Below, piece after piece: positions 30,054-53,921 of a stretch of 64,000 nt of DNA. The stretch comes from Candidatus Peribacteria bacterium (GTDB lineage: Bacteria > Patescibacteriota > Gracilibacteria > Peribacterales > Peribacteraceae). Numbering within the stretch: position 1 is the stretch's first letter; each line of letters opens with the position of its first letter. The stretch is from positions 30,504-94,503 of the forward strand of contig DMXL01000007.1 in the NCBI GenBank assembly GCA_003483925.1. The letters run 5' to 3'. The notes beneath the pieces were generated by a model. The model did no database searches, was not told where the DNA came from, and worked only from the letters and a program-made list of their open reading frames with translations. The position numbers and the translations under genes were made by a program.

Positions 30054-31727
30054 TCAATACACCTCCTTCCGGTAGCAATTCTCGCAGTAGATCTGCATCT
30101 CCGTATCCGCGGGGTAGCTCGTGACCATGGGGACGGAACACTTCGCGCACAAGCCTTCGCGCAGCTTCCACGGGTTCTGCTCGCGAGAACGCCGTAGGTG
30201 GCGGCAGTCCGGGCAAGAGTCCGGGAGAGGGATGCGGCGCGCGCGATATACGGCGAGCTCTTGGGGAACGATCTTGTAATTCTTCCCACACTCTTCGCAC
30301 ACGAGCACGCTTTCCATCGCGTCGTTCGCAACCTGATCGATCGCATCGGGCACCCGGTACGTCTGCGCGCGGGGTACGCGCGGCTCGGGCGGGTGCCAGC
30401 GATAGCCGAGTTCCTTCGCCTGCTCTTCCATAAGCGGGAAACGCTCCATCGCTGCGGTCTCGTTGTACGCAAATGGCGCGCAGGAAGCCGGGAAGAATTC
30501 TCCCCATTCACCGTTCACTCTCATGGCCGCGATGATCCGTGGCACGAGGCGCTCGTATTCGTCTTTCGTATACTGCTTGTTCAGGATGCAGTACTGGCTG
30601 CGGCGGAGCCCGATGCATCCGAAAATGTCTTTTGAAGCGGTGATGAAAAAGGAGTAGTGCACGCGCTGGCACCCCGACGTGCGCAGACAGAAGCTCGTGC
30701 CGTACGACGCCGCGACGGATGTGGTTTCGTAGATGAGCTCACTGTCCCTCCCGCCGGTATAAGCGTCCATGGCATCCCGATACAGGTTCACGTCGTAGAG
30801 ATACCGTCCGTCCACGGAATCGAATGCTCCGTAACATTGCAGACAGTTCTTGCAACGGAAGAGATTGTCACCGGTGACGTTCTCGCACTGGATGTTCATG
30901 AGATTGCGGCGAATCGCCTTGCGCCGGATCCCGCGGTACATGCTCTCAGCCATCTTCACCATCTTGCGGGAGCCGAAGTCGAACTCCCGAAGCTTTGCTT
31001 CATATGCATCCTTCGTGAGTTGCTCGTTGAGGAAGTAGTATCGCTTCCCGCGGAGATTGCTGCACATGAAGCAGTCCAAGCAATTGCGACAGTCCAGGAG
31101 AAACGCACAGTTTGCGCAGTCGCTGCAGAAGAAGAGGTAGCGGCTGTCAGTGCAGTTCATGCATTCCACGCACTCGTAAAGGAAGGATGATTTCTTCACC
31201 TGCGTACAATCCGTGCAATCGGAGCTCCGACTCCCGCGGTAGGTGTAGAGCATGTCCTGGGATTGATGTGTACGCGCGCAGAGGTAGCAATTCTTGCTTT
31301 CGCGCACGTCGCTGTTGAACTCGCAGTTCTCCGAGAGCTCCACGCGCAGCGATGGGAGCGGGATCGCGAGCGCGAAGCTCCGGAATTGATCGAAGAACGG
31401 GCGCGCAGCATCGTATGGACGTCCGTATGCAAGCGGATCGAAGGCATCGGAGAACCAGTGGTTCTTCTCACAGACTTTGTGAGGAGAGTCGGGAGAGAAC
31501 ACCGAGATGATGTCCTGTCCCGTGACATCGCATTTTCGCCGGTAGAGCTGCCGCTCGTTTCGAAAGCTCATCCTCCTTCGCTGCCGACAGTCGGGGCACA
31601 GGGTCGGTGGCGGGATGAGCTCCTTCTTCCCGGCGAAGACAGGCGAAACTCTCTCGAGGAACGTGAGGTCGTCCTCCGTGACATCGAAGGGGGCACGGCA
31701 CCAAGAGTTCAAGCAAATCTTCTGCAT
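30054..31727 (-). CDS. Cys-rich array paralogue G1 (uncharacterised zinc-ribbon/Cys-ladder family)
   Basis: 557 aa. The N-terminus reads MQKICLNSWCRAPFDV..PPPTLCPDCRQRRR..YRRKCDVTGQDII. A Cys ladder follows. The C-terminal module keeps all Cys (VCEECGKNYKI..CPDCRH..CAKC..YCENCYRKEVY*). Confidence 0.85.
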   Translation of the reverse strand: MQKICLNSWCRAPFDVTEDDLTFLERVSPVFAGKKELIPPPTLCPDCRQRRRMSFRNERQLYRRKCDVTGQDIISVFSPDSPHKVCEKNHWFSDAFDPLAYGRPYDAARPFFDQFRSFALAIPLPSLRVELSENCEFNSDVRESKNCYLCARTHQSQDMLYTYRGSRSSDCTDCTQVKKSSFLYECVECMNCTDSRYLFFCSDCANCAFLLDCRNCLDCFMCSNLRGKRYYFLNEQLTKDAYEAKLREFDFGSRKMVKMAESMYRGIRRKAIRRNLMNIQCENVTGDNLFRCKNCLQCYGAFDSVDGRYLYDVNLYRDAMDAYTGGRDSELIYETTSVAASYGTSFCLRTSGCQRVHYSFFITASKDIFGCIGLRRSQYCILNKQYTKDEYERLVPRIIAAMRVNGEWGEFFPASCAPFAYNETAAMERFPLMEEQAKELGYRWHPPEPRVPRAQTYRVPDAIDQVANDAMESVLVCEECGKNYKIVPQELAVYRARRIPLPDSCPDCRHLRRSREQNPWKLREGLCAKCSVPMVTSYPADTEMQIYCENCYRKEVY

Positions 31728-31799
31728 ACGCTGATTCTAGCAAGGGATGAGGGGCATGTAGTACGTATTATGAGAGATTGGTTCTCCTGCCCATACCCC
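31728..31799 (-). promoter_or_regulatory. Array junction cassette with extended -10 (TGCTAGAAT) for G1
   Basis: Reverse complement of 31734-31742 is TGCTAGAAT, 6 nt from the ATG. The cassette contains the shared string gaggggcatgtagtacgtattatg. Confidence 0.5.
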
Positions 31800-31910
31800 T
31801 TACTACACCTCTTTGAGGTAGCACTCCTCGCCCATTCGACTCCGTCTCGCTGCGCTCGCCTCCGCTCAGGGTGAATCGTGTTGTAAGCGAAAGAGGAATT
31901 GAGTTGATAT
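31800..31910 (-). repeat. REP-like core plus ghost gene terminus downstream of G2
   Basis: The minus strand after the G2 stop reads ..CACGATTCACCCTGAGCGGAGGCGAGCGCAGCGAGACGGAGTCGA-ATGGGCGAGGAGTGCTACCTCAAAGAGGTGTAGTAA. This gives a degenerate second copy of the family C-terminus (MGEECYLKEV**). Confidence 0.7.
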
Positions 31911-33611
31911 TCAGTATACTTCTTTCAGATAACACGATTCGCAGTACACAATTTCCGGTCTCTCGGGCGCATAGGTCGTCTCCATTGACTTGCCGCACTT
32001 CGCACACGCACGCTTCCAGAGCTTGCGTGGATTGCGTAAGGCCCTGCGTGCGGCATGGCGCACTTCGAAATGCCGGCGCGGGAGAGGCACATGCAGTTTT
32101 CGATAGAGACCAAGCTCGCTCGGCTGGATTTTGAATAGTTTCCCGGATACCTCGCAGCGGATGGCCCACTGGAGCACATCATCGGGAACGGCATCGATCG
32201 TTTCGGGAAGACGATCGCCAGAGACCACCTTTGTGACAGATGGCATTTCCTCGCGCATCTCGCGCCACCGCCATCCGCGTTTCTTCACCTCCTCCTTCGT
32301 GAGCGGATAGTAATCCTGAGCGACGGTTTCGTTGTACGAAAAGGCGGAGAGCGTGGGAGGGAAAAACTCTCCCCATGTCCCCTCTTTTCGCATCTGTTCA
32401 ATAATCTTCGGAGTCAATCGTCCGTATTCTTCTTCCGTGTACTGCGTATTCAGAATGCAGTGCCGCATCTTCTTCAAGCCCACGCAGCCGAAACAATCGT
32501 TGGCACCCTGGAGACAGTAGATGGAGTAGCAGAGATTCGAGACACCGAACGACTGGTAGTAGCAACAAATGAGCCGTTCGACGCCCGCTCCCACGTAGGC
32601 GCAGTTGTACACGAGGTTCATCTTGTCACCCCATGCGTCGACGTCCTGCGCGTCCGATCCGCCCATCATGCAGTTCGTGCAATGACGACAATCGCGCATG
32701 TCCATGCAATCGTAGGAATCATGCATGTTCTTGCAGGAGATGAGGTTGTCGCCCGTTACCTCTTCACTCATCACCGTACGAGTGGCTTTGCGCGGGTATC
32801 TGAGGAAAAGAGCCTCCGCTTGCGCACGCAGCGCCTCCACGCCGGCATGCGTGTGAAGGGCGAATGCCGCCTTCCGGAGAGCGAACTCCTCCTTGGAAAC
32901 CGGCTCATTGAAGATATGATACTCCTTCTGGTGCAGATTCACGCACCCGATGCAGTTCCGGCAACTTGAGCAATCAAGGAGGAACGCGCTATCCGAGCAG
33001 TTGCTACAGAAGCGCGAATACAGCAGATGAAAACACTCCTGGCAGTGGATGCACTCGTAACAGAGCTCGCACTGCTTGAGGCTGTAGAAATCGCAACAAT
33101 CCTTGAGGAGCGCGTAGACTTCGCCATAGTAGGAGTCCTGCGCCTGCTCCCCGTCAAAGATCAGGTAACAGTTCTGCAGACGGTATCCGTCGTGTGCGTA
33201 GTCGCTGTTGATGTTGTCAGTGAGCGCGAGGATGGAGATTTTCGGGACGGCGTACCACAGATCGCGGAATTGATCGAAGAACGGGCGCGAGAAATCGTAC
33301 GCCCTACCGAAGGAAAGAGGATCCCAGTTATCCCCCCACCAGCACGCAGGACAGAAGACGGTAAAGGGGGAATCGGCAGGATAGATGGCGATGATGCGCT
33401 TCTTGCAATGATCGCACACACGCGGGTACAGCGTCCGTTCATTGCGCATGGCCAACCTTCTCTGCTGACGGCAGTCGAGGCAAAAGGCGGGGGGAGGAAC
33501 GGATTCTTTCTTTCTATTGAATACAGGAGAGATCTTGTCATAGAACGCAAGATCATCCTGCGCGATCTCGAAGGCGGAAGCGCACCACGGGTTGGCGCAG
33601 ATTTTCTGCAT
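31911..33611 (-). CDS. Cys-rich array paralogue G2
   Basis: 566 aa. It starts MQKICANPWCASAFEI..PPPAFCLDCRQQRR, contains CFGCVGLKKMRHCILNTQYTEEEY, and ends CAKCGKSMETTYAPERPEIVYCESCYLKEVY*. Confidence 0.85.
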   Translation of the reverse strand: MQKICANPWCASAFEIAQDDLAFYDKISPVFNRKKESVPPPAFCLDCRQQRRLAMRNERTLYPRVCDHCKKRIIAIYPADSPFTVFCPACWWGDNWDPLSFGRAYDFSRPFFDQFRDLWYAVPKISILALTDNINSDYAHDGYRLQNCYLIFDGEQAQDSYYGEVYALLKDCCDFYSLKQCELCYECIHCQECFHLLYSRFCSNCSDSAFLLDCSSCRNCIGCVNLHQKEYHIFNEPVSKEEFALRKAAFALHTHAGVEALRAQAEALFLRYPRKATRTVMSEEVTGDNLISCKNMHDSYDCMDMRDCRHCTNCMMGGSDAQDVDAWGDKMNLVYNCAYVGAGVERLICCYYQSFGVSNLCYSIYCLQGANDCFGCVGLKKMRHCILNTQYTEEEYGRLTPKIIEQMRKEGTWGEFFPPTLSAFSYNETVAQDYYPLTKEEVKKRGWRWREMREEMPSVTKVVSGDRLPETIDAVPDDVLQWAIRCEVSGKLFKIQPSELGLYRKLHVPLPRRHFEVRHAARRALRNPRKLWKRACAKCGKSMETTYAPERPEIVYCESCYLKEVY

Positions 33612-33619
33612 GGGGGGCT

Positions 33620-33628
33620 AGTATAGCA
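33620..33628 (-). promoter_or_regulatory. Extended -10 (TGCTATACT) for G2
   Basis: Reverse complement of 33620-33628 is TGCTATACT. An 8-nt spacer (AGCCCCCC) separates it from the ATG. Confidence 0.45.
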
Positions 33629-33659
33629 AACATCGTCATAGTGAGGGGCCCCGCACAAA

Positions 33660-33770
33660 TCAATAAACCTCTTTGAGATAGCAATCTTCGCCCATTCGAC
33701 TCCGTCTCGCTGCGCTCGCCTCCGCTCAGGGTGAATCGTGCTGTAAGCGAAAGGGGAATTGGGTTGATAT
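33660..33770 (-). repeat. REP-like core plus ghost gene terminus downstream of G3
   Basis: This is the same 111-nt element as 31800..31910. It ends ..GGAGTCGA-ATGGGCGAAGATTGCTATCTCAAAGAGGTTTATTGA (MGEDCYLKEVY*). Confidence 0.7.
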
Positions 33771-35453
33771 TCAGTATACTTCTTTCAGATAACACGATTC
33801 GCAGTAGACAATTTCCGGCCGATCCGGGGCATAGGTTGTCTCCATCTCCTTGCCGCACTTCGCGCACGCGCGCTTCCAGAGCTTGCGGGGATTCCTTTGA
33901 GCCATCAGCCTGCGATGGCGTTCGTCGGGGTGGAAATGGGAAACGGGAAGCCGCATCTTCCGGTAGAAATCCAGCTCCTGCTTGATGACCCTGAAGGGAC
34001 GCCCCGTGGCTTCGCACTTGATCACCCAGTTCAAGATGTCATCGGGGACATCGTCGATGGAGTCCGGCAGCTTCCGGGCGGGAATCACTTTGTCCGCCTT
34101 CGGCATATCGTCGCGCTCCTCCTTCCATCTCCATCCCCTCTTCTCCGCGTCTTGCTTCGTGAGAGGGAAGAAATCAGAGGCAACGGAGTCGTTGTAGGCG
34201 TAGAGGCTCCTCTCGACGGGAAAGAACTCACCATACTCCTGGGTTTTACGCATATGTTCAATGATCTTCGGTACGAGCGTCTCGTACTCCTCCTTGGAAT
34301 ATTGCTTGTTCAAGATGCAATGTTTTCCTCGCGCATGCAGCCCGTCGCATCCGAAGCAGTCGGATTGGTAGAAGCAGGAGCTTAAGTAGAGGGAGCGCGG
34401 GGAGGCGATGGTGCAATAGCTGAAGCGCGTGAGGTAGTTCTTCTCTCCGCCGGAGGACATCTCGTAACAGAGCTCGATATCCTTGTCGTGTGAGGCCAAG
34501 TCCATGGAATCTTTGACTCCTTCGCACTCGAAGATGTACGAGGAATCCTCGACATTGAAGCAGTCGGAGCAATTCATGGCGTTGCGACAGTTGGAGAGGT
34601 ACGTTCCCGTGGACCCCTCGCAATTGAGCTGGATCTGCGCCCGCTTGGGGACGGTCACGTCGAAGGCGGCGAATTCCGCCTGAAGATCTTCCGGAGAAGT
34701 TTGCCGGTACTGCCGGAGGATGTCCGCATAGGCTTCTTCCGTGAGCTGCTCATTTTTGAAGCAGTACTGCTTGTTACGGATCCCACTGCACATGAAACAG
34801 TCTTTGGCGTTGGTACAATCTCGTAAGTAGTTTGAGAACGAGCATTGACGACAGTTCACGAGGTGATGCGCAGAATTGCAGCCGTCGCAGTTGGTGCTCT
34901 CCGCAACAAGCTCGCATCGGTTGAGCACATTGGAGTTGGCGCAGTCGCGACAGTACTGACTCTTGCGCAGGTAATAGCAATCTTCCACGAAATAACTCCC
35001 CGGACAGAGGTACGCGTTCTTGCTGAAGGCGAGGAGGAGATTATATTCGCAGTTCTCGTTATTCAGCTGGAGAGCGGCCGCCTGCGGCACCGTGTGCTGG
35101 AGCTCCTCGAATTGCTGGAAGAATGGCTTGGAGAAATCGAAATCTCTGCCGTAGTCCATCGGGTCCCAACGATCCGACCACCAGCAATCCGTGCAGTACA
35201 CCGTGTACGGGCTCTCGGGAGCGAAGGAGGAAATGGTCGTTTTCTTGCAGAGACCGCAGGTATGCCTGTAAATGCTATGTTCATTGCGAAACGCGTGCCT
35301 CCGTTGCAGCCGGCAATCGGGACAGAGGGTAGGAGGCGGAATAAGGAATTTCTTCCTGCCGAAGGCCGGTGAAATTTTCTCGTAAAACTTCAAGTCATCA
35401 TCGGTGACCTTGAAGGGGGCACGACACCAAGAGTTCAAGCAAATCTTCTGCAT
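33771..35453 (-). CDS. Cys-rich array paralogue G3
   Basis: 560 aa. It starts MQKICLNSWCRAPFKV, contains CFGCDGLHARGKHCILNKQYSKEEYE, and ends ..HFHPDERHRR..CAKCGKEMETTYAPDRPEIVYCESCYLKEVY*. Confidence 0.85.
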   Translation of the reverse strand: MQKICLNSWCRAPFKVTDDDLKFYEKISPAFGRKKFLIPPPTLCPDCRLQRRHAFRNEHSIYRHTCGLCKKTTISSFAPESPYTVYCTDCWWSDRWDPMDYGRDFDFSKPFFQQFEELQHTVPQAAALQLNNENCEYNLLLAFSKNAYLCPGSYFVEDCYYLRKSQYCRDCANSNVLNRCELVAESTNCDGCNSAHHLVNCRQCSFSNYLRDCTNAKDCFMCSGIRNKQYCFKNEQLTEEAYADILRQYRQTSPEDLQAEFAAFDVTVPKRAQIQLNCEGSTGTYLSNCRNAMNCSDCFNVEDSSYIFECEGVKDSMDLASHDKDIELCYEMSSGGEKNYLTRFSYCTIASPRSLYLSSCFYQSDCFGCDGLHARGKHCILNKQYSKEEYETLVPKIIEHMRKTQEYGEFFPVERSLYAYNDSVASDFFPLTKQDAEKRGWRWKEERDDMPKADKVIPARKLPDSIDDVPDDILNWVIKCEATGRPFRVIKQELDFYRKMRLPVSHFHPDERHRRLMAQRNPRKLWKRACAKCGKEMETTYAPDRPEIVYCESCYLKEVY

Positions 35454-35551
35454 ACGCTGATTCTAGCAAGGAATGAGGGGCATGTAGTACGTATTATGTA
35501 TTATGGGATATGGGATTGGTTCTCCTGCCCATACCCCTTACTACATACCCC
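35454..35551 (-). promoter_or_regulatory. Array junction cassette: structured spacer plus extended -10 (TGCTAGAAT) for G3
   Basis: The -10 is the reverse complement of 35460-35468, 6 nt from the ATG. A 14-bp inverted repeat pairs aggggcatgtagta (35476-35489) with tactacatacccct (35539-35552). It encloses an inner gggatatggg/cccatacccc hairpin. Confidence 0.55.
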
Positions 35552-37231
35552 TTAATACACCTCTTTGAGGTAGCACTCTTCACAGAAAACTATTTCAGGG
35601 CGTTCTGGCGAGTATGTCGTCTCGATCCCCTTCCCGCACTTGGCACATGTCCGGCTCCAGAGGTGGCGAGGATTGCGCAGCTGCATGCGACGACGATGCC
35701 GGCAATCGTGACAGGATGAAGGAATCGGCAAGAGCATCTCCCGATAGAAGCGAAGTTCCTGAGGGATGATCTTGAAATTTCTCCCGCACGTTGCGCAGGC
35801 GAGGGTCTCCTGCAAGATGTCATCCTTGACCGTGCGGATGTCTGGGGGAACCGCGTGTTTGTTGGAAGAGAACCCCCTCTCCTCCATTTCCTTCCATCGC
35901 CATTTTCGCTTGAGGATTTCACCTTTGGTGAGGGGGAAATACTCCTGCGCGACAGACTCGTTGTAGGCGAATGGAGAGCGAGCGGCAGGGAGAAACTCCC
36001 CCCACGTACCGTCCTTGACCATCTGCTCAATGATTTTCTGAGCCAGCTTCTCATACTCTTCTTTCGTGTATTGCTTGTTGAGGATGCAGTAACGCTTGTG
36101 CTTGAGACTGATGCAGCCGAAGAGATCCGCGGAATTATTGTGGCAGCAGTCGCTGTAGAGAAGATCTCTCCCCTCCGCGCAGATGTGGCAGAAGAGGAGG
36201 TGGTATCCCGCCATTCCCGCGTGCAGCTCGTAATTGAGCTGGCTCTGCACCAGCCAGCCGTGCTCGTAGGTGTCCATGGAGTCTTTGTTCTTCCCTGAAT
36301 CGTAAATGTACGCGCTGTCTTCCACGTCACGGCAGTTGAAGCAGTGCTTCACGTTCTTGCAGTTGTAGAGATCGTCTCCGGACACAGAAGTGCAGTTGAT
36401 CTGCAACGCGAAACGGTGCGGGAATGTCAGCTTGAACGCACGCCACTTCTCTGCGAAGGCGGCGAATGCTTCGGGGGAAGTGAGGAGCTCTTCCTTCACG
36501 CGCGCATACTCCTGCGCGGACACAGGTTGATTGAAGATGTGGAGTTCCTTCTGCCGTAGCCCTACGCAGCCGATGCACCGCTCGCACCCCTTGCACTCGT
36601 AGCAGAAGAGACTGTCACGACAATTCTGGCAGGATTGAGAAAAGGCTGTCCCGTAACAGTGCAAGCAGTACGAACAGTCGTAGCATCGCTCGCAATATTC
36701 GCAGTACATCGAGTCCACCACGTTCTTGCTCTCCAGCACCCAGTGACCGTAGTAGCAGTCCTCGCACTTGCCGAGCGCCACGCCCATGTAGCAGTTCTTA
36801 TTGTTCGCGGAATGGCTCGTGTAGATGCAGTTCTCGCTGTGCAGGTTGAAGAGGTAGAGGCGGGGAACACGCATTCGTAGCTCGGCAACCTGTTCGAGAA
36901 ATGGCCGCGTGAAATCGACGTCCGTCCCGTACTCCAGCGCATCCCATTGATCCCCCCACCAGCATTCGTAGCAATAGACGGCGTACGGGGAATCCGGCGC
37001 GTACATGGACACGATAGATTTCCCGCACCGATCACAGGTATCCCGGTACAGATTACGCTCATTGCGCCATGCAAGCCGGCGGCGCTGCCTGCAATCGGGG
37101 CAGAGTGTCGGAGGAGGAATCTCGTACTTCTTGCCGCCAACGCTGGGAGAGAGCTCGTCCAAGAGCGCAAGATCACTCTGTGTGACCTCGAAGGGGGCAC
37201 GGCACCAAGAGTTCAAGCAAATCTTCTGCAT
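35552..37231 (-). CDS. Cys-rich array paralogue G4
   Basis: 559 aa with 43 Cys by my count. It starts MQKICLNSWCRAPFEV. The C-terminal module keeps its Cys (CATCGRNFKI..SCHDCRH..CAKCGK..FCEECYLKEVY*). Confidence 0.85.
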   Translation of the reverse strand: MQKICLNSWCRAPFEVTQSDLALLDELSPSVGGKKYEIPPPTLCPDCRQRRRLAWRNERNLYRDTCDRCGKSIVSMYAPDSPYAVYCYECWWGDQWDALEYGTDVDFTRPFLEQVAELRMRVPRLYLFNLHSENCIYTSHSANNKNCYMGVALGKCEDCYYGHWVLESKNVVDSMYCEYCERCYDCSYCLHCYGTAFSQSCQNCRDSLFCYECKGCERCIGCVGLRQKELHIFNQPVSAQEYARVKEELLTSPEAFAAFAEKWRAFKLTFPHRFALQINCTSVSGDDLYNCKNVKHCFNCRDVEDSAYIYDSGKNKDSMDTYEHGWLVQSQLNYELHAGMAGYHLLFCHICAEGRDLLYSDCCHNNSADLFGCISLKHKRYCILNKQYTKEEYEKLAQKIIEQMVKDGTWGEFLPAARSPFAYNESVAQEYFPLTKGEILKRKWRWKEMEERGFSSNKHAVPPDIRTVKDDILQETLACATCGRNFKIIPQELRFYREMLLPIPSSCHDCRHRRRMQLRNPRHLWSRTCAKCGKGIETTYSPERPEIVFCEECYLKEVY

Positions 37232-37329
37232 ACGCTGATTCTAGCAAGGGACGAGGGGCATGTAGTACGTATTATGTATTATGGGATATGGGATTGGTTC
37301 TCCTGCCCATACCCCTTACTACATACCCC
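37232..37329 (-). promoter_or_regulatory. Array junction cassette plus extended -10 (TGCTAGAAT) for G4
   Basis: Nearly identical to 35454..35551. The -10 is the reverse complement of 37238-37246. Confidence 0.55.
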
Positions 37330-38979: not shown

Positions 38980-38986
38980 GGGAGGT

Positions 38987-40693: not shown

Positions 40694-40775
40694 ACTCTGA
40701 TCCTAGCAAGGAATGAGGGGCATGTAGTACGTATTATGTATTGGAATATGGGATTGGTTCTCCTGCCCATACCCC
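40694..40775 (-). promoter_or_regulatory. Array junction cassette (short variant) plus extended -10 (TGCTAGGAT) for G6
   Basis: Reverse complement of 40700-40708 is TGCTAGGAT, 6 nt from the ATG. The shared gaggggcatgtagtacgtattatg string is present. Confidence 0.5.
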
Positions 40776-43410: not shown

Positions 43411-43417
43411 CGCGAAC

Positions 43418-43445: not shown

Positions 43446-43463
43446 GAATATTTGTCAACCCGC

Positions 43464-45158: not shown

Positions 45159-45240
45159 ACTCTGATTCTAGCAAGGAATGAGGGGCATGTAGTACGTATT
45201 ATGTATGGGGATATGGGATTGGTTCTCCTGCCCATACCCC
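45159..45240 (-). promoter_or_regulatory. Array junction cassette (short variant) plus extended -10 (TGCTAGAAT) for G8
   Basis: Reverse complement of 45165-45173 is TGCTAGAAT, 6 nt from the GTG. Confidence 0.5.
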
Positions 45241-46938: not shown

Positions 46939-47005
46939 GTGATCAGTATACTTCCTTCAAATAACACTCCTCGCCCATTCGACTTCGCTCAGAGTGAAAA
47001 TTGCT
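46939..47005 (-). repeat. REP-like core plus ghost terminus between G10 and G9
   Basis: The minus strand reads AGCAATTTTCACTCTGAGCGAAGTCGA-ATGGGCGAGGAGTGTTATTTGAAGGAAGTATACTGA-TCAC-ATG(G9). The ghost MGEECYLKEVY* is in frame with G10 behind its TGA. Confidence 0.7.
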
Positions 47006-48694
47006 TCAGTAAACCTCTTGAAGATAGCAATTTTCGCAATAGACGATTTCCGGCCGCTCGGGCGCGTAGGTCGTCTCAATTCCCTTTTTACACTTCGCAC
47101 AATTGCGCTTCCAAAGCTTGTAAGGGTTCCTGCGCATCAATCTCTGTCTGTGTCGCTCATCGGGATGGAAGTGCGGCAAGGGAAGCTGCATCTTCCGATA
47201 GAAGTCCATTTCCTGTTTGACGATCTGGAACGGGCGACCCGTTGCTTCACACTCGATGGGTTGGTTGAGCATATCGTCTGAAACATTGGAGATGTCCTCC
47301 GGCAGCTTATGAGCGGAAATATTCTTCCCCGTCTTGGGAGCCTCTTCGACATCGTTGCGCCAACGCCACCCCCCTCTTTCCGCAGATTCTTGCGTGAGCG
47401 GGCAATATTCCTGGGCAATGGTCTCGTTGTACGCAAATGGACTGAGGCTTGCCGGCAAGTACTCGCCCCATTCGCCGTTCGCCCGCATGGATGCGATAAT
47501 TTTCGCCACCAGCGTCTCGTACTCATCCTTCGTATACTGCTTGTTCAAAATGCAGTACCGTTTGTTCTTCAGAGCTACGCAGCCGAAGATGTCGTTGTTG
47601 TGATGACACTCCAGCGAATAGTACACATCGGATCCGTACCAAACGTAGAAACAGGCCATCGACGATTCCAGATCCACCGTGGAACAGACGCTGTAGCAAT
47701 ACCTGTCCCCGTCCGGAGCGCAGAAGGCGCAGTCCTGCGTGCAGAGAGTTTTCGGCGAGAAGTAAATGTATTTGCAGTCTTCGCATTTCTTGCAGTCAAA
47801 GGCATTGAAGCAGTTTTTGGAATTGTAGACACCATCCCCCGTGCAGTTCTCGGAAGCATAAATATTCGCATGCGGGTGGGGCAGTGATGCCTTGAGTTCC
47901 GAAAGCTTTTTCTGAAGACGACCGATGCTGGCATGGGAAAGCGAGGAGAATTCCCGGGAAAGACGCCCGTACTCTTCCGCTGAATATGATTGGTTGAATA
48001 TACAGTACTGCTTCGCCCTCAAGCCGAAACATCCGATGCAATCCGTGCAACCAAGACAGTCTTCGATCATCGTGCAATTGCGGCAATTCCGGCAATTCAC
48101 GAAAAATCGACATCCGTAGCACTGCTCGGAAGCCACACCCTCGTAACAGAGCTCGGACGAATACACCGACAGACAGTCGACGCAGTCTTTGCAGTACACC
48201 ACGAATTTCCCATAGAGGCAGTCCTCATCGTCTCCTGCGCCGAATACCAGATAGCAATTCTTCTGGTTCAGGGCGTAGTTCGTGTAACTGCTGTTCTCGA
48301 TATTCGTGTTGTAGAGCGCGACATGGGGCACTTCCGCGTACAGCTCCTTGAGCTGCTGCCTCAGCGTTCTGGAAAAGTCGTACGCACGACCGTAGGCGAG
48401 CGCATCCCAGCGGTCACCCCACCATGCATCGCGATCGTAGACTTTGTATGGCATATCCGGAGCATAGATGGAGAGCATCGGTTTCCCTGTCAGATCGCAG
48501 GTGCGGTGGTACAGCTTCCTCTCGTTCCGGAAAGAAAGACGCAATTGCTGCCGGCATTCCGGGCACAGAGTCGGCGGCGGAATGGGCTCCTTCTTCCCGT
48601 TGAATACGGGTGAAACCCGCTCGTAGAACTCAAGATCGCCTTCGGTAATCTCGAAGGGCTGCTTGCACCAAACGTTCGCGCAGGTTTTCTGCAT
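47006..48694 (-). CDS. Cys-rich array paralogue G10
   Basis: 562 aa. It starts MQKTCANVWCKQPFEITEGDL and ends ..CAKCKKGIETTYAPERPEIVYCENCYLQEVY*. Confidence 0.85.
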   Translation of the reverse strand: MQKTCANVWCKQPFEITEGDLEFYERVSPVFNGKKEPIPPPTLCPECRQQLRLSFRNERKLYHRTCDLTGKPMLSIYAPDMPYKVYDRDAWWGDRWDALAYGRAYDFSRTLRQQLKELYAEVPHVALYNTNIENSSYTNYALNQKNCYLVFGAGDDEDCLYGKFVVYCKDCVDCLSVYSSELCYEGVASEQCYGCRFFVNCRNCRNCTMIEDCLGCTDCIGCFGLRAKQYCIFNQSYSAEEYGRLSREFSSLSHASIGRLQKKLSELKASLPHPHANIYASENCTGDGVYNSKNCFNAFDCKKCEDCKYIYFSPKTLCTQDCAFCAPDGDRYCYSVCSTVDLESSMACFYVWYGSDVYYSLECHHNNDIFGCVALKNKRYCILNKQYTKDEYETLVAKIIASMRANGEWGEYLPASLSPFAYNETIAQEYCPLTQESAERGGWRWRNDVEEAPKTGKNISAHKLPEDISNVSDDMLNQPIECEATGRPFQIVKQEMDFYRKMQLPLPHFHPDERHRQRLMRRNPYKLWKRNCAKCKKGIETTYAPERPEIVYCENCYLQEVY

Positions 48695-48763
48695 GGACGA
48701 TCAGTATACCTCTTTCAAAGAGCATTCCTCGCCCATTCGACTTCGCTCAGAGTGAAAATTGCT
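48695..48763 (-). repeat. REP-like core plus ghost terminus between G11 and G10
   Basis: The first 40 nt are the same as in 46939..47005. The ghost MGEECSLKEVY* ends 6 nt before the G10 ATG and is in frame behind the G11 TGA. Confidence 0.7.
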
Positions 48764-50428
48764 TCAGTAAACCTCTTGAAGATAGCAATTTTCGCAATAG
48801 ACGGTCTCCGGCCGCTCCGGCGCGTAGGTCGTCTCGATGGGCTTCTTGCACTTCATGCACGTGCGCTTCCAGAGATGACGGGGGTTGCGGAGTGCGAAAC
48901 GCTCCCTCTGCCTCTGCATGAAACACTTGCGAGGCAAAGGCAGTTTCATCGTACGATAAAACGTAAGTTCTTTCGGAATAATTTTGTAAAGCTTGCCGGA
49001 AGATTCGCAGCGCAAAATCTTGTCGCAAATACCTTCATCTGTGTCTCGGATATCGTCAGGCACAGGCACAATTGGACCGAGGTAATTCTGCTCCTCTGAT
49101 CCTTCCTCTTCCTCCTTCCACCTCCATCCTTTCTTCAACACCTGTTCCCTCGTTAACGGGAAGTACTCCTGTGCGATGGTTTCGTTGTAGCCGAACGGTG
49201 AGAGCTCCCGTGGGAAGAATTGCCCCCACTCCTTGGTTTTCCGCATGTGCTCGATGATCCTCGGGACAATCTGTTCGTACTTCTCCTTCGTGTACTGCTT
49301 ATTCAAGATGCAGTAACGCTTCTGCTTGAGACTGACGCAGCCGAAACAATCTTTACAACCATGGCAAGTGTCGCAGTAGGAGAGATTTGCATTGTCATTC
49401 TGACACGCATGACAGGCGATGAGCCGGTAGTTCGGGCCGATGGTGAGGCAGTTGTAGCAAAGCTCGGCGCGCGCGCCCGCGTTGATCCCGCAAAAATTGC
49501 AATCGAGGGAATCGGAGAAGCTGTCGAGCGTGGCGCTGTACAACGTATCTTCGCAGTTCTTCAGATCGTACCCGTCGTAGATGTTCCTGCAATTATAGAG
49601 GTAATCCCCGGTCACCTTCTCACAATTGAAGCCATGGTAATGCTTCACGATTTCCTTACCGATCAGGCTCTGTACCCGCTTCCTTGCCAGCTCCACGGTT
49701 CGTATGTTTCCCGTATTCAGCTCGGCGATTTTTTGCCGATACTCCTCTTTGGAATGGGGCTCGTTAAAAATGTGGCACTCCTTGTTCTTCAGTCCCACGC
49801 ATCCGAAGCAATCGTGGCATCCCACGCAATGCACGAGAAACATCGACGCAGAGCAATTGTCACAGTCACGTGAAAAGCTGAGTGTGTGGCACTGGACGCA
49901 ATCGATGCACTCGTAGCAATATTCCGATCGATAGGTGTAGAGGCAATCGTAGCAATTCTGGGATTGCCAAACGATATGACCGTACATGCAGTCTTCGTTT
50001 CCGACGTTCCCGAAGACAAGATAGCAATTGCGGCTGCCATTCGACATGTTGCAATAGTCGCAATTCTCGCAGTTGACGTTCATGAACGCGATGCGCGGAA
50101 CCGTGCGATGGAGGACAGCCATTTGCTCGAAGAATGGACGTGAGAAATCCATGTCGATTCCGAAGCTGAGACCATCCCATTTGTCGCTCCACCATTCCTG
50201 CAACCCGTAAACGGGAAAGGGGGTTCCGGTGTCATAGACCGACAGCATTTTCTTTCCGGTGAGATCGCACGTGCGGTGATAGAGGTGAAAGAAATTGCGG
50301 AACATGAGCCGCCGCTGGCGGCGGCAGGCCGGGCATTCCACCGGCTCCGGCACGTCCAGCACACGATAGAGCTCCTGCTCCTTGGGGAGGAGAGGGAACG
50401 CCGCGCTGCAATACGTGCATGTCGGCAT
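48764..50428 (-). CDS. Cys-rich array paralogue G11
   Basis: 554 aa. It starts MPTCTYCSAAFPLLPKEQELY..CPACRRQRR and ends ..CMKCKKPIETTYAPERPETVYCENCYLQEVY*. Confidence 0.85.
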   Translation of the reverse strand: MPTCTYCSAAFPLLPKEQELYRVLDVPEPVECPACRRQRRLMFRNFFHLYHRTCDLTGKKMLSVYDTGTPFPVYGLQEWWSDKWDGLSFGIDMDFSRPFFEQMAVLHRTVPRIAFMNVNCENCDYCNMSNGSRNCYLVFGNVGNEDCMYGHIVWQSQNCYDCLYTYRSEYCYECIDCVQCHTLSFSRDCDNCSASMFLVHCVGCHDCFGCVGLKNKECHIFNEPHSKEEYRQKIAELNTGNIRTVELARKRVQSLIGKEIVKHYHGFNCEKVTGDYLYNCRNIYDGYDLKNCEDTLYSATLDSFSDSLDCNFCGINAGARAELCYNCLTIGPNYRLIACHACQNDNANLSYCDTCHGCKDCFGCVSLKQKRYCILNKQYTKEKYEQIVPRIIEHMRKTKEWGQFFPRELSPFGYNETIAQEYFPLTREQVLKKGWRWKEEEEGSEEQNYLGPIVPVPDDIRDTDEGICDKILRCESSGKLYKIIPKELTFYRTMKLPLPRKCFMQRQRERFALRNPRHLWKRTCMKCKKPIETTYAPERPETVYCENCYLQEVY

Positions 50429-50429
50429 A

Positions 50430-50534
50430 TCAATAAACTGTGGAGAGGTAACACTCTTCGCCCTTCGACTCGTTGCTTCGCTCCTCGCTCAGGGTGAATC
50501 TTGCGGTGCCGTTGGTGATCGGTTGGAGTGCCAT
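50430..50534 (-). CDS. Possible bridging small ORF (34 aa) between G12 and G11
   Basis: It encodes MALQPITNGTARFTLSEERSNESKGEECYLSTVY*. Its ATG lies 1 nt after the G12 TGA, and its TGA lies 1 nt before the G11 ATG. It covers the REP-like core and the ghost terminus. Confidence 0.3.
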   Translation of the reverse strand: MALQPITNGTARFTLSEERSNESKGEECYLSTVY

Positions 50535-50535
50535 C

Positions 50536-52194
50536 TCAATAAACAGATGAAAGATAGCAAGATTCGCAATACACGGTCTCCGGCCGCTCCGGCGCATAGG
50601 TCGTCTCTATCCCCTTCCCGCACTTCATGCACGTGCGCTTCCAGAGATGACGGGGATTACGCAGTGCCATGCGCTCGAGCATCCGCTGTTCGAAGCACTT
50701 CTTGGGAGGAGGAATCCCCATCTGACGATAGAAGGCGAACTCCTTCGGAATGATCTTGTACGGCTTCCCGCTGACAGTGCAGCGCAGAATCTTTCCGCAG
50801 AGGGACTCGTCCGATTGCTCGATCGTGTCCGGCACGGTGACTTCCGGTCCGAGATACGACTGCCCCTCGCCATCCGCGCACCACTTCCAACCGCGTTTCT
50901 CGGCCTCTTTTTGAGAGAGAGGATAGTAATCCTGCGCCATCGTTTCGTTGTATCCGAAGGGTGAGTACTTGGTGGGGAAAAATTCCCCCCACTCCTGCGT
51001 CTGCCTCATGTGGGCAATGATGCGCGGCACGAGCTCTTCGTATTCCTCTTTTGAGTACTGCTTATTGAGAATGCAGTACTTCTTGTGTTTCAAACCGCTG
51101 CACCCGAAGCAGTGCTCGCAATGGAAGCAGAGACTGCAGTAGAGAATGTCATGATCGAACCAGCAAATATCATTGAAGCAGTGCATCGTATTCGCTTCGC
51201 TCCCCACGGCTTCGTAGACCAATTCGGAACGGTCGTCATTATTCACGTCTACGGCATCTTTCATGGATGTCGCATTCGCCACGTACGCGCAATCCTGCAC
51301 GCCGATGACTTCGTAGCAGACACGCGCATTCCGCGAATTGATGATGGCATTGCCCGTGCAGTTTTCCGTATTGATCGCATCCATGTATTTGCGCGGCATT
51401 TCGCGCTTGCGCTCCTCGAAATTCTTGCGCACAAGCTTCATGTCCTGCCGAAGCTGCCGTACGAGTTCCTCGTATTTTCCTTTCGTGTACCGGACATTCC
51501 CGACGCAATACTGTGCGTTCTGGAGGTTGTAGCACGCGAAGCAATCGCGGCACCCTCGCAAGTTGTAGCCGAGAAAGCAGTCGAAACAGTTGGAACAATT
51601 CTGCAGGTACTGACAGTGATAACAGCGATCGGAATCAACGACTTCGTAACAGAGTTCGCAACTCTCGACATTGGCGCAGTCGCAGATGCTCCGCGACATT
51701 TGCGAGCGGTTGCAGTAAAAACTGTCCTCGCATCCATAGCACGTGAAAAGGAGGTAACTGTTCTTGTTCCGCAGCGAAAAATTGCAGTACTCGCTGTTTT
51801 CGTGGTCTTTGTTGATCAAACTGATCCTCGGTACCTTGAGGAAGAGTTCATGAAACTGCCCGAAGAACGGCCGCGAAAAATCGAAGCTTCTCCCGTACGC
51901 AAGCGGATCCCATTGATCACCCCAAAAAGCATCCTGGTCATACACTTTCTGCGGACTCCCCGTGGTATACATGGAGATGATCTGCCGGCCGGTGAGATCG
52001 CATTTGCGATGATAGAGAGAGCGCTCGTTGCGAAACGCCAGCCTCCTCTGCTGCCGACAATCCGGGCACAGAGTCGGCGGCGGGATGAGCTCCTTCTTTC
52101 CAGCGAAAACGGGCGATACCTTTTCGTAGAACGCGAGATCGTCGGGGGTGATCTCGAAGGATTGCCGGCATTGCGTACAGGTTTTTTGCATCAT
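50536..52194 (-). CDS. Cys-rich array paralogue G12
   Basis: The ORF track gives 50536..52215. Family alignment favours (M)MQKTCTQCRQSFEITPDDL at 52194 or 52191. The start overlaps the G13 stop (ATGATG over TGA). It ends ..CMKCGKGIETTYAPERPETVYCESCYLSSVY*. Confidence 0.8.
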   Translation of the reverse strand: MMQKTCTQCRQSFEITPDDLAFYEKVSPVFAGKKELIPPPTLCPDCRQQRRLAFRNERSLYHRKCDLTGRQIISMYTTGSPQKVYDQDAFWGDQWDPLAYGRSFDFSRPFFGQFHELFLKVPRISLINKDHENSEYCNFSLRNKNSYLLFTCYGCEDSFYCNRSQMSRSICDCANVESCELCYEVVDSDRCYHCQYLQNCSNCFDCFLGYNLRGCRDCFACYNLQNAQYCVGNVRYTKGKYEELVRQLRQDMKLVRKNFEERKREMPRKYMDAINTENCTGNAIINSRNARVCYEVIGVQDCAYVANATSMKDAVDVNNDDRSELVYEAVGSEANTMHCFNDICWFDHDILYCSLCFHCEHCFGCSGLKHKKYCILNKQYSKEEYEELVPRIIAHMRQTQEWGEFFPTKYSPFGYNETMAQDYYPLSQKEAEKRGWKWCADGEGQSYLGPEVTVPDTIEQSDESLCGKILRCTVSGKPYKIIPKEFAFYRQMGIPPPKKCFEQRMLERMALRNPRHLWKRTCMKCGKGIETTYAPERPETVYCESCYLSSVY

Positions 52195-53921
52195 ATGAGC
52201 GATTCCTGATAACACTTCTCGCAGTATATTTTCTCAGGACGATCCGGCGCGTAAGTGGTCCGGATCGCAATGCCGCATGCATCACACATGCGTTCGCAGA
52301 GAACGCGTTTGTTGCGCATCGCCATCTGTTTCCGGTAACGCGCGAAGAAGCTGGTCCGGGGCAGCGGCACATGTAACTGCTTATGGAATTTGAGTTCCTG
52401 CGGAATAATTTTGTATTGTTTTCCGCTCTCGGAGCAGGTCAGTATTTTCCTGCAAATGTCATCGGTTGCGTCGTCAATGCTGTCCGGAATCTCCACCTTC
52501 GGACCCAGGTATTGATCCTTCTTCTCTACCTCATCAAACCATCGCCAACCGCGCGCAAGAACCTCCTTTTTGGTGAGCGGGAAGTAATCTTGAGCCAGTG
52601 TCTCGTTGTAGGCAAAACACGATGTCTCCGTGGGGAAGAATTCGCCCCATTCGTGCGTTGATCGCATGTGCTCGATGATCTTCGGCACGAGTTTCTCGTA
52701 CTCCTCCTTGGTGTATTGCTTGTTCAAAATGCAGTATTCCTTGCGTCTTAAGCCGACGCAGGCAAAACAGTGCTTCGAATGGTGACACAGCTGGCAATAC
52801 ATCATATCGCTCATGCTGGCGAGCGTATGGTTGCAGAAGTAGCAGCTATGCAGCTCATATCCCGCGACGGAGCACTCGTAGAGTCTCTCCGCTTCGCCGC
52901 ATTCGTGAATGTCCATACAGTTTTTTAACGGCATGAATCCCTGGAAGACGTGCCTGCAGTCCCACAGATCTTCGCTGTCAAAGCAGTTGTAGGCGTTCTT
53001 GCAGTTCACCAAATAGTCACCAACGACATCTTCGTTCTGCACTCCGTGCATATACTTCTGCGGGAACTCCAACCTGAGCGTGTCGAAACGCCGGCGCGCG
53101 GACTCCACGACCGATTGGCTTCCGAGCATGGCGCGGAACGATTCAAATTCCTCTTTGGATACCTGCTTGTTCTCAATGAAGTACTCCTTGTTTTTCAGAT
53201 TGCTGCACATCAGACATTTTTTGCAGCCCGTGCAGTTTTTGAGGAACATCGATTCCGCGCAATTGTCGCAGTCCTGAAGGTACGACGAACCGTAGCATTT
53301 CACGCAATCGATGCATTCGTAGCAGAGTTCGGATTTCCTCGTGCGATAGCACCCAACGCAGTTTGCGCACTGGTTTATGCTGTAGCTGAAATAGCAGTCC
53401 CGGTTTTGGTCGGAATCAAAGATCAGATAGCAATCCTTGTTCTTCCCGGCGTAATTCGTGTAGTCGCAGTTTTCGTCGAACTCGTAGCCCGTCATCAGGT
53501 TCGGCCGCGGCACGGCATCGAACAGTTCTTTCCACTGTTCGAAAAACGGCCGGGGGAAATCGAAATCTCTCTGGTATGCATGCGGATCCCACTTGTCGCT
53601 GTACCAGTCCTCTTGGGCGTAGACCCTGTAAGGAGAGGATGGATGGATATTGGAAATGATCTGCGCTCCCGAAAGATCGCACTTCCTCTCGTAGAGGTTT
53701 ACGTGATTCACGTGCGATTGCCTTCGCCGCAATCTGCAATCGGGACAGAGCGTGGGAGGAGGGAGACTCATCGTTTTCCCTCCGATCTCGGGGGAAAGTT
53801 CACGCAACATGGCCAGATCTTCATCCGAGATTTCGAATGCCGATGAGCAGTGACGGCAATTTACAGACACAAAAAAAATGGTGAAGATACTAATGAGGAT
53901 CGGATTTTCGCCAAGGGTCAT
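52191..53921 (-). CDS. Cys-rich array paralogue G13 (first gene of the array, atypical N- and C-termini)
   Basis: 576 aa. MTLGENPILISIFTIFFVSV precedes the family start NCRHCSSAFEISDEDL. It ends ..CDACGIAIRTTYAPDRPEKIYCEKCYQESLI*. An internal GTG (VSVNC) is an alternative start. Confidence 0.75.
   Translation of the reverse strand: MTLGENPILISIFTIFFVSVNCRHCSSAFEISDEDLAMLRELSPEIGGKTMSLPPPTLCPDCRLRRRQSHVNHVNLYERKCDLSGAQIISNIHPSSPYRVYAQEDWYSDKWDPHAYQRDFDFPRPFFEQWKELFDAVPRPNLMTGYEFDENCDYTNYAGKNKDCYLIFDSDQNRDCYFSYSINQCANCVGCYRTRKSELCYECIDCVKCYGSSYLQDCDNCAESMFLKNCTGCKKCLMCSNLKNKEYFIENKQVSKEEFESFRAMLGSQSVVESARRRFDTLRLEFPQKYMHGVQNEDVVGDYLVNCKNAYNCFDSEDLWDCRHVFQGFMPLKNCMDIHECGEAERLYECSVAGYELHSCYFCNHTLASMSDMMYCQLCHHSKHCFACVGLRRKEYCILNKQYTKEEYEKLVPKIIEHMRSTHEWGEFFPTETSCFAYNETLAQDYFPLTKKEVLARGWRWFDEVEKKDQYLGPKVEIPDSIDDATDDICRKILTCSESGKQYKIIPQELKFHKQLHVPLPRTSFFARYRKQMAMRNKRVLCERMCDACGIAIRTTYAPDRPEKIYCEKCYQESLI

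Follow-up and report, generated by a model that had tools for sequence, protein, structure and literature searches.

A conserved Patescibacteria cassette of TrmB-type regulators, tandem cysteine-rich paralogues, and a VirD4/VirB4-superfamily ATPase

We analyzed a 64,000-nucleotide stretch of a Candidatus Peribacteria bacterium genome (assembly GCA_003483925.1, contig DMXL01000007.1, positions 30,504 to 94,503 of the forward strand), referred to below as the window, in whose numbering all coordinates are given. The window carries an array of cysteine-rich paralogues, G1 to G13, which an initial annotation made from the letters alone had described as 13 same-strand open reading frames (ORFs) of one collinear plan. 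The ORF listing and translations bore this out, with 13 minus-strand ORFs of 549 to 576 amino acids and 33 to 45 Cys each lying between positions 30054 and 53921 (Table 1). Alignment showed the proteins to be collinear over their whole length, and the consensus motifs proposed earlier for the N terminus, centre, and C terminus reappeared in the alignment consensus. Each protein fits a family hidden Markov model (HMM) across profile positions 1 to 557; because chance cannot yield full-length matches of this kind, G1 to G13 are homologous. In the identity matrix, pairwise values are 28 to 49%, save for G5 and G6, which share 71% identity, G5 being ~30% identical to the remaining paralogues. A recount agreed with the 43 Cys first reported for G4, and the layout described for the upstream half (an ATGA overlap of G13 and G12, gaps of 67, 69, 82, and 107 nucleotides [nt], and a small ORF encoding MGEECYLKEVY-stop after G10 and after G11) was also recovered.

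The absence of signal peptides and transmembrane (TM) helices from the array proteins likewise held. Kyte-Doolittle maxima (19-residue window) are ≤1.36 for G1 to G12 and 1.60 for G13, where the value arises solely in an N-terminal extension that other members lack. With the GTG at 53870, G13 would start as the other members do, four residues ahead of the first Cys, and the hydrophobic extension, in which the possible helix of the initial annotation falls, is probably not translated.

An assembly artefact was ruled out by the occurrence of the same array in four independently named records. Sixteen contigs carry the identical G4 protein; four of these, from assembly records under different names (three in ENA and one in NCBI, GCA_001789155.1, from groundwater), share one gene order. 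No assembler could collapse or inflate paralogues that differ so much.

Table 1. Features of the array and its junctions, listed by type (aa, amino acids; values in brackets after bit scores are cut-offs; L-numbers designate related genomes)
Feature	Position	Strand	Description
G1	30054-31727	minus	Family paralogue, 557 aa, 38 Cys; last gene of the array, with the ATPase gene 101 nt downstream
G2	31911-33611	minus	Family paralogue, 566 aa, 40 Cys; 63% identical to best other-genome relative (L039)
G3	33771-35453	minus	Family paralogue, 560 aa, 38 Cys; assigned by collinear alignment and family HMM
G4	35552-37231	minus	Family paralogue, 559 aa, 43 Cys; copy modelled with AlphaFold2; L031 orthologue 86% identical
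G5	37330-38979	minus	Divergent subfamily copy, 549 aa; degenerate N-terminal zinc site; L031 orthologue 75% identical
G6	38987-40693	minus	Divergent subfamily copy, 568 aa; 7-nt gap to G5
G7	40776-42485	minus	Family paralogue, 569 aa, 33 Cys; 64% identical to best relative (L002)
G8	43464-45158	minus	Family paralogue, 564 aa, GTG start
G9	45241-46938	minus	Family paralogue, 565 aa; 84%-identical L031 orthologue
G10	47006-48694	minus	Family paralogue, 562 aa
G11	48764-50428	minus	Family paralogue, 554 aa, 45 Cys; L031 orthologue 76% identical
G12	50536-52194	minus	Family paralogue; likely start ATG at 52194 (mechanical ORF from GTG at 52215)
G13	52191-53921	minus	First paralogue of the array; likely start GTG at 53870
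ATPase	27709-29952	minus	Soluble ATPase, 747 aa; terminal gene of the cassette; N-terminal DUF8128, then VirD4/TraD/VirB4-type P-loop domain
Internal regulator	42616-43410	minus	TrmB-type winged-helix regulator, 264 aa from ATG at 43410, the start also chosen by gene callers (mechanical ORF from TTG at 43488); Pfam TrmB 34.1 bits (25.6)
Divergent regulator	54049-54804	plus	TrmB-type regulator at the head of the array, 251 aa; Pfam TrmB 36.9 bits (25.6)
P element	35454-35551; also 31728-31800, 37232-37329, 40694-40775, 45159-45240	minus	Junction module upstream of G3, G1, G4, G6, G8
X element	46939-47005; also 31801-31910, 33662-33770, 48695-48763, 50429-50535	minus	After the TGA stops of G10, G2, G3, G11, G12
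Palindrome	54011-54028		Perfect palindrome TGTAGAAA-GT-TTTCTACA (= TGTAGAAAGTTTTCTACA) in the divergent intergenic region; overlaps the -35-like hexamer of the regulator promoter-like site

The family is far from local to one genome. A word-indexed search with G4 returned at least 7,452 clusters at 90% identity, and all named matches listed came from Patescibacteria (Peregrinibacteria/Peribacteria, Gracilibacteria, Kerfeld-, Uhr-, and Berkelbacteria) and were annotated as hypothetical. An exhaustive profile search gave 5,795 representatives of 50%-identity clusters at an E value of ≤1e-3 and 2,455 at ≤1e-30, nearly all of 540 to 580 amino acids. Related loci were drawn from one-genome-per-species contigs (78 loci, or 79 with the window). 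Tandem arrays were common among the 78, with 12 copies in one 22-kb slice and 9 or 10 in others; about a third of the loci held a single copy, and one metagenome-assembled genome (MAG) carried at least 17 copies over two contigs. The whole family protein had no match in phage or plasmid collections; in the plasmid collection, tblastn with G4 found only the terminal zinc module (residues 466 to 556, 31 to 33% identity) in Firmicutes proteins annotated as "zinc-ribbon domain containing protein". We therefore rejected a phage or plasmid origin, the flank of the array in the window being core chromosome. The array is real, and the family is very large, confined among named relatives to the Candidate Phyla Radiation (CPR), and uncharacterized, as first supposed: its central region has no match in Pfam, NCBIfam, PADLOC, or PDB, the last by either sequence or fold.

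A set of Cys-rich Peribacteria proteins of 580 to 3,860 amino acids, most with a predicted signal peptide and including a 14-gene cluster, was reported by Anantharaman et al. 2016 (Table S4). We considered whether the two sets are the same and rejected it, since the ORFs in Table S4 are others (1089 to 1102 and other pappalysin-like proteins) and mostly encode a predicted signal peptide. In the genome of Ca. Peribacter riflensis, the members of the present family are ORFs 658 to 666, which are annotated only as hypothetical, one with the remark "C-rich... transcription factor??". Literature searches on the family, DUF8128, and PF13451/PF23477/TIGR04272 found nothing. Two rare fusions involving family proteins were also seen: one of 808 amino acids (P0186) has a C-terminal extension that looks winged-helix-like by eye and a degenerate last zinc site, and in the other, of 731 amino acids (P0225), the N-terminal region resembles GNAT when judged by eye; either may be a gene-calling merge.

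To the Cys-rich genes and regulators of the initial annotation, which were confirmed, must be added an ATPase gene just downstream of G1 that had been missed. The order in the window is divergent regulator, G13 to G8, internal regulator, G7 to G1, and ATPase. All non-family ORFs in the 79 loci were clustered, and only two neighbour families recurred, the TrmB-type regulator and the 747-amino-acid ATPase. Of the 79 loci, 39 contain the regulator family, whose median distance to a family gene is 145 nt; the regulator usually lies directly upstream of the family run and is encoded on the other strand. The ATPase family occurs in 21 of the 79, with a median separation of 88 nt from family genes, and is mostly encoded in the same direction as the array, at its 3′ end. 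In a reciprocal test, we started from the ATPase and took 80 metagenome loci, 58 of which had an ATPase at least 48% identical and enough flanking sequence. A family gene lay ≤3 kb from the ATPase in 43 of these 58; among the 15 exceptions, the ATPase was at the upstream contig end in 7 and the family gene had been missed by the distance filter in 2. Beside more distant ATPases, a family gene was found in 0 of 8 loci.

The same cassette is present in the complete genome of Ca. Peribacter riflensis, as ORFs 666 to 658 with two winged helix-turn-helix (wHTH) genes and, at its end, ORF 657, a 748-amino-acid COG0433 ATPase; a VirB4-like gene lies elsewhere in that genome. The linkage was also seen in MAGs labelled Abawacabacteria, Gracilibacteria, and Paceibacterota. 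These data firmly establish a conserved cassette made up of one or more TrmB-type regulators, usually divergent, 1 to 13 or more paralogues, and one soluble ATPase of the VirD4/VirB4 superfamily. The internal regulator, which had been called the only foreign gene in the array, is thus TrmB-like as claimed and not foreign, its family recurring at 39 of 79 loci; the second, divergent TrmB-like gene also scores above the Pfam cut-off. No model matched a C-terminal sensor domain in either regulator. Just past the divergent regulator lie rpsI, rpoA, a methionine aminopeptidase gene, and secY (55656 to 63433), and with rpsI, rpoA, and secY adjoining, the cassette sits in a core chromosomal context and not on an obvious mobile island.

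Each paralogue is built, in order, from a zinc module, solenoid A, a helical hairpin, solenoid B, a highly conserved helix/loop segment (ILNKQYTKEEYE...EWGEFFP..SPFAYNET), and a second zinc module. Two internal duplications were detected with hhalign, one pairing residues 1 to 100 with 468 to 559 (99.8%, E value 6e-28) and the other pairing solenoid A (residues 125 to 240) with solenoid B (268 to 392; 99.8%, E value 3.5e-29). The zinc module consists of a treble-clef-like CxxC...CPDC finger, a strongly basic helix, and a CxxC-x17-CxxC ribbon; the basic helices that follow the zinc sites are CRQQRRLAWRNER and CRHRRRMQLRNPR. Among 257 members, complete four-Cys sets were counted in 218 at the N-terminal treble clef, in 244 at the C-terminal ribbon, and in 80 and 90 at the two inner sites, and most members with incomplete sets lack two or more ligands. 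Because these sets are mostly kept or lost as complete units, two to four four-Cys sites per protein look like genuine zinc sites.

Scans of the paralogues against Pfam, NCBIfam, PADLOC, and PHROGs gave only subthreshold finger matches and phrog_15341, a family of unknown function that the G4 solenoid matches weakly (E value 2.4e-5). The best scores of the terminal modules fell below cut-off (zf_Tbcl_2, 26.2 bits against 27; zf_Tbcl, 19.8 against 24; TIGR04272, 22.6 against 36), and a few database relatives carry precomputed PF13451 or PF23477 matches. Stand-alone zinc-ribbon proteins (zf_Tbcl PF13451 plus zf_Tbcl_2 PF23477, or TIGR04272 with CxxC-x17-CxxC) have the same two-finger plan as the terminal modules. 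Those proteins are the module alone and have no known function, whereas here two modules flank ~370 residues that match no model. Against PDB sequences, the family profile matched a LIM-like finger only: the 30 C-terminal residues (CxxC-x17-CxxC-Y) can be aligned to the second LIM finger of CRP1 (PDB 1b8t and 1ctl; E value 9e-4). The likeness is to a single finger, with no LIM architecture, and the Pfam LIM match is below threshold (E value 0.039).

Structure comparison, proposed earlier as a way of placing the family, yielded a confident model of G4 but no characterized fold match. The AlphaFold2 model has a predicted local distance difference test (pLDDT) score of 85.5, with 61 to 75 in the solenoid regions, and a predicted template modelling score (pTM) of 0.86. 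Foldseek found no match to it in PDB or BFVD at an E value of ≤1e-3, only insignificant left-handed beta-helix and zinc-ribbon matches. The only nonfinger PDB matches, all weak, were to the Tenebrio antifreeze protein (1ezg) and to left-handed beta-helix proteins (gamma-carbonic anhydrase and the AGPase C-domain). Short coils in multiples of three, an inward Cys/Ser register, and a conserved turn Asn recall beta-solenoids of this kind, although the matches are insignificant (E values of 1.3 to 9). We regard the family as a candidate new fold class, a solenoid with a period-3 Cys/Ser ladder.

The initial annotation had noted a long ladder of Cys through the centre of these proteins, and comparison of the members showed that this ladder is not a set of conserved metal ligands. 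Ladder Cys keep a strict period-3 register, those at positions 145 to 229 all being congruent modulo 3. Individual ladder positions hold Cys in 30 to 95% of members and are replaced independently, by Ser (41%), Leu (13%), Val (13%), Ala, or Thr, with His and Asp each accounting for ≤2% of replacements overall. The pattern suggests Cys/Ser core packing in a narrow solenoid rather than an obligatory poly-metal site. A disulfide ladder is unlikely, since the proteins are cytoplasmic and have no signal peptide. The abundance of Cys (25 to 52 per family member, 38 on average) in an anaerobe with a reducing cytoplasm, together with the repeated CxxC spacing, would fit a role in metal or sulfur handling, in which the ladder binds many metal ions or iron-sulfur (Fe-S) clusters for storage, buffering, or as an electron "wire" and the ATPase is unrelated or serves assembly. 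We consider this very improbable: replacement of ladder Cys is independent, whereas the terminal sites are kept or lost as sets; the ferredoxin-type motif CxxCxxCxxxCP occurs in 0 of 257 members, and Pfam and NCBIfam give no Fer4 or other cluster-binding domain; and bulk storage needs no thirteen ancient, specifically conserved paralogues. An obligatory metal-cluster ladder was accordingly dropped as the principal explanation, given the independent nonligand replacements and the missing cluster motif.

The paralogues are old. For 12 of the 13, a relative in another genome is closer than any inside the array, the best other-genome identities being 86% for G4, 76% for G11, 75% for G5, 66% for G13, 64% for G7, and 63% for G2; the best relative of G1 in the sampled loci is only 41% identical, and no close orthologue was found there. 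Over all multicopy loci, 201 of 221 genes have their best match in a different locus. The ratio of nonsynonymous to synonymous substitution rates (dN/dS) is 0.083 for G4 (against L031) and 0.14 for G7 (against L002), compared with 0.069 for the adjoining ATPase. That the paralogues are ancient and under purifying selection is thus firmly supported by sequence comparison, and a recent lineage-specific expansion or diversifying selection was rejected on these grounds (closer relatives elsewhere for 12 of 13; dN/dS of 0.08 to 0.14). Selection for a diversified repertoire, if meant as ongoing diversification, is likewise contradicted, the centre of G4 being its most conserved part. Nor was there any sign of the hypervariable segments that had been expected: in the G4 orthologue pair, dN is lowest in the solenoid region (0.01 to 0.05). 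The solenoids are the least conserved part among paralogues; diverged between paralogues yet conserved within orthologues, they would be specificity-determining rather than hypervariable.

Array content and order vary between genomes whose ATPases are 87% identical. In the nearest sampled relative, at that level of ATPase identity, the array reads G13-like, G11-like, a novel type, G9-like, G5-like, G4-like, regulator, G7-like, two further novel types, and ATPase. The G9 orthologue of this relative, L031, is 84% identical and falls into two overlapping ORFs (5239 to 6998), either through a frameshift that made it a pseudogene or through a sequencing error.

Between the genes, two families of junction element were found (Table 1). 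The P element (about 82 to 98 nt) has five near-identical copies and was found in this genome only; its 3′ end, TTGCTAGAATCAGCGT followed directly by ATG, places a TGn-extended -10-like box 6 nt upstream of the start codon. The junctions at 35404 to 35584 and 37182 to 37362 are 98% identical over 181 nt, each running from 33 nt before the end of one gene through the P element to 50 nt into the next, while the flanking gene bodies are at ~30 to 45% protein identity. This points to recent gene conversion at the two junctions or to strong constraint at the DNA level. The X element consists of ATTCACyCTGAGCG, a 0- to 20-nt insert, GAGTCGAATGG, and a pseudo-3′ end encoding (M)GEECYLKEVY-stop, and also occurs in related genomes (three copies in L031, and L025 and L039). 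Across genomes, the 11-codon pseudo-C terminus keeps the peptide GEECYLKEVY through synonymous changes. Translation of the peptide, recurrent conversion from true gene ends, or constraint on the sequence as a promoter or ribosome-binding module could each account for this. Two other explanations of the X element were rejected. As a ribozyme or known RNA, it has no Rfam match at an E value of ≤1, and its predicted structure has no compensatory pairs; against read-through or recoding of the TGA, the pseudo-C terminus is out of frame in roughly half of the copies.

Generic scans for sigma-70 promoters and terminators showed no enrichment over shuffled sequence, and our promoter inference rests instead on the fixed spacing of a -10-like box to the start codon. 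A TAnnnT hexamer ends 6 to 9 nt before the start codons of G1 to G10 and of both TrmB-type genes, which suggests -10-only promoters giving leaderless mRNAs and agrees with the private promoters proposed earlier for most genes of the downstream half. At G9, G10, and the direct G6-G5 junction, the codons GTA TAC TGA hold a TATACT box 6 to 8 nt before the next start; such genes would end in TGA, rather than in TAA as do G4, G5, G7, and G9, which are followed directly by a P element, because these codons form the box. Retention of the X pseudo-end would likewise follow from its codons doubling as a TATACT box. The palindrome in front of the divergent regulator is a candidate operator. A separate -10-like box (CAGAAT) lies 9 nt ahead of the ATG of the ATPase gene, which may therefore be transcribed separately from the array; an 11-pair hairpin (30023 to 30048, minus) lies right after the G1 stop, before the ATPase gene.

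By Pfam, the ATPase matches T4SS-DNA_transf (32.0 bits; cut-off 20.1), TrwB_AAD_bind (26.1 bits; 20.5), and DUF87, with the Walker A motif GKSGVGKS; according to precomputed Pfam matches, its N-terminal 320 residues are DUF8128. NCBIfam TraD and VirD4-like matches are far under the equivalog cut-offs. Full-length homologues (23 to 29% identity over 83 to 95% of the length) are encoded on Bacillus, Streptomyces-group, Staphylococcus, haloarchaeal, and Sulfolobus plasmids. On the two plasmids examined (Bacillus and Embleya), the homologue belongs to a conjugation cluster of the monoderm type and immediately precedes a "replication-relaxation" gene, with TcpE, PrgI, and VirB4-like genes nearby; the Bacillus protein has no TM segment, and the Embleya protein has one. 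The ATPase also matches phrog_5156, a phage family of unknown function (E value 4e-71), and gp156 of the jumbo phage Bacillus phage G (JN638751.1, 91009 to 93141) is 23% identical to it over 88% of the length. Its AlphaFold2 model is poor (pLDDT 64.9); the best Foldseek matches of this model, all of them ATPases of type IV secretion systems, were to TrwK/VirB4 (E value 1e-8, ~730 columns) and to DotL, Cag-beta, and another R388 chain (8rtd) at E values of 6e-5 to 3e-4, with TM-scores of just 0.22 to 0.35 overall. Across the lineage, the ATPase is 69 to 87% identical, compared with 45 to 58% for the closest outside relatives of G4 among the matches listed.

A 2025 survey of 2,918 Patescibacteria genomes counted 5,713 VirD4-like coupling proteins, 148 of them near virB4, with relaxases rare, and its authors wrote that exaptation of these proteins for another function cannot be ruled out (PMC12102498). 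The cassette ATPase resembles the orphan type IV coupling proteins (T4CPs) of that survey in scoring above the T4SS-DNA_transf and TrwB_AAD_bind cut-offs, in lying far from any virB4, and in having plasmid homologues in monoderm (MPF-FATA-like) conjugation clusters. It differs in its company: no partner genes were described there, whereas here one clade combining DUF8128 with the ATPase domain, and lacking a TM helix, is specifically tied to Cys-rich arrays and TrmB-type regulators. We found no paper that links such ATPases to the Cys-rich family.

Although the family has no characterized relative, its genomic logic resembles the known pattern of a secretion ATPase with paralogous clients. The Bep genes of Bartonella adjoin virB/virD4, and these and the XVIPCD effectors of Xanthomonas are paralogues that lie beside, or are recognized by, a VirD4-type ATPase and combine conserved termini with a variable payload. 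To our knowledge, these effectors have no sequence or fold relationship to G1 to G13, in which no BID or XVIPCD domain is found. The conserved parts of the present proteins differ in being zinc modules at both ends, and the cassette ATPase differs in being soluble.

The interpretation we favour, tentatively and at somewhat less than an even chance, is that the paralogues are interchangeable clients of one ATPase, docking by their conserved ends and hinge and differing in solenoid specificity. The conserved ends and hinge would form a common docking surface for the ATPase; one option is that the basic helices bind its conserved acidic C-terminal tail (..FEEPLI). The solenoids, paralogue-specific yet conserved among orthologues, would carry distinct binding specificities, and the TrmB-type regulators would presumably choose the expressed subset, each gene being transcribed from its own putative -10-only, leaderless-type promoter. 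As a coupling protein, the ATPase could pass the paralogues to a conjugation-derived type IV secretion system (T4SS) of episymbionts and so into the host cell. That the paralogues form a repertoire of T4SS cargo or effectors, by analogy with effector arrays served by VirD4, is the variant that we favour, although it is doubtful; G1 to G13 are possibly secreted substrates, judged from gene linkage and conserved termini only, and the Pfam scan found no known secretion-signal domain in them. About equally doubtful is a broader proposal, that the cassette encodes a new CPR machine in which a soluble VirB4/VirD4-superfamily motor exapted from conjugation works with interchangeable specificity subunits, the new-fold Cys-ladder solenoids. 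In such a machine, each subunit, ancient in origin, would have been conserved for a target of its own, the regulators would select subunits for expression from individual leaderless promoters, and the targets would be host-cell components after T4SS delivery or specific intracellular nucleic acids. If so, thousands of orphan Patescibacteria coupling-protein homologues would gain their first assigned partner.

Several observations weigh against the client interpretation and delivery to a host. Canonical coupling proteins are membrane anchored at the N terminus, whereas the ATPase reaches a Kyte-Doolittle maximum of 1.00 (19-residue window), with no window above 1.6; its whole-length Foldseek matches, from a model of pLDDT 64.9, are to VirB4 rather than VirD4; and no relaxase, mating-pair formation, or other T4SS gene was identified among the window ORFs scanned. 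Compact, zinc-stabilized, Cys-rich proteins, as the G4 model (pTM 0.86) portrays them, would be awkward cargo for a system that needs unfolded substrates. The purifying selection and the conservation of the ATPase look more like a core function than fast-evolving effectors. In about a third of loci, a lone family copy has neither the regulator nor the ATPase nearby, and a Saccharibacteria T4CP homologue was not essential for epibiotic growth (PMC12102498).

Part of this evidence would suit intracellular nucleic-acid machinery instead, with zinc-finger paralogues that recognize DNA or RNA and either load or direct a soluble FtsK/HerA/VirB4-like translocase or act as transcription factors. Each solenoid would then be specific for a different sequence or structure, in roles such as processing of taken-up DNA, segregation, or repair. 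We judge this reading unlikely. Up to four treble-clef or ribbon zinc sites per protein followed by strongly basic helices, the resemblance of the C-terminal finger to a LIM treble clef, an ATPase without a membrane anchor, purifying selection at a core-like location next to rpsI, rpoA, and secY, and dprA 3 kb away in the window are all in keeping with it. Neither Pfam nor NCBIfam gives a recognized DNA- or RNA-binding domain above threshold, however, and 1 to at least 17 copies per MAG, with content turnover among close relatives, would be odd for a housekeeping function. In related loci, dprA is not a conserved neighbour, and the cassette already contains dedicated wHTH regulators.

A repertoire for anti-phage or anti-plasmid defence or immunity, with the paralogues as sensors or immunity proteins and the HerA/VirD4-like ATPase as effector or scaffold, is more improbable still. 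Defence complexes of HerA with a partner protein would be one analogue, and tandem immunity-gene strings another. PADLOC gave a partial mad8 match (1.4e-13) and weak HerA matches for the ATPase, but no hits for G4, G5, and G13 and only weak HTH-type matches for the regulators (E values of ~0.006 to 0.03). Arrays of ancient type whose genes are present or absent between close relatives recall strings of immunity genes, and the homogenized junctions (98% identity) point to recombination between repeats. In the immunity strings beside EssC, the FtsK-like ATPase of the type VII secretion system, old nonidentical paralogues likewise adjoin a secretion ATPase and recombination at junctions reshuffles content (PMC9484751). 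The strings encode small immunity proteins with known toxins, whereas here the proteins are large, of zinc-finger and solenoid type, and no toxin is present. No nuclease, toxin, or other effector domain was found, proteins of ~560 amino acids with four zinc modules are unlike known immunity proteins, and an ATPase conserved at 69 to 87% over a class-level lineage is unlike patchy defence genes. The chromosomal context is core, and the window has no integrase or mobile-element genes.

A large part of bacterial diversity belongs to CPR bacteria (Patescibacteria), which live on other cells as symbionts. Chromosome records of related Peribacteria run from 1.25 to 1.31 Mb, and the source genome is likely a little over 1 Mb. 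Because 24 kb of paralogues under purifying selection is a heavy investment in a genome of ~1 Mb, their function likely matters for this lifestyle. One conserved clade of orphan CPR ATPases is now tied to a very large family whose ~370 central residues have no Pfam model and whose fold has no match in PDB. The locus makes it possible to test whether the ATPase binds the paralogues, whether these are exported to the host, and what the solenoids target, and offers a lead on what orphan secretion ATPases act on.

Elsewhere in the window, dprA (23534 to 24754, minus; DNA_processg_A plus DprA_WH) was called from an ORF whose 5′ end overlaps tRNA-Thr(CGT) on the opposite strand (24670 to 24744, plus); dprA itself therefore probably begins further downstream. 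An ORF of 3,672 amino acids (7123 to 18141, minus) has no Pfam match at an E value of ≤1e-3 and may be a giant protein of the kind described for Peribacteria. Two genes resembling PMT_2 (dolichyl-phosphate-mannose-type) glycosyltransferases (338 to 2191, minus; 5075 to 6430, plus) recall the multicopy mannosyltransferases reported for Ca. Peribacter.

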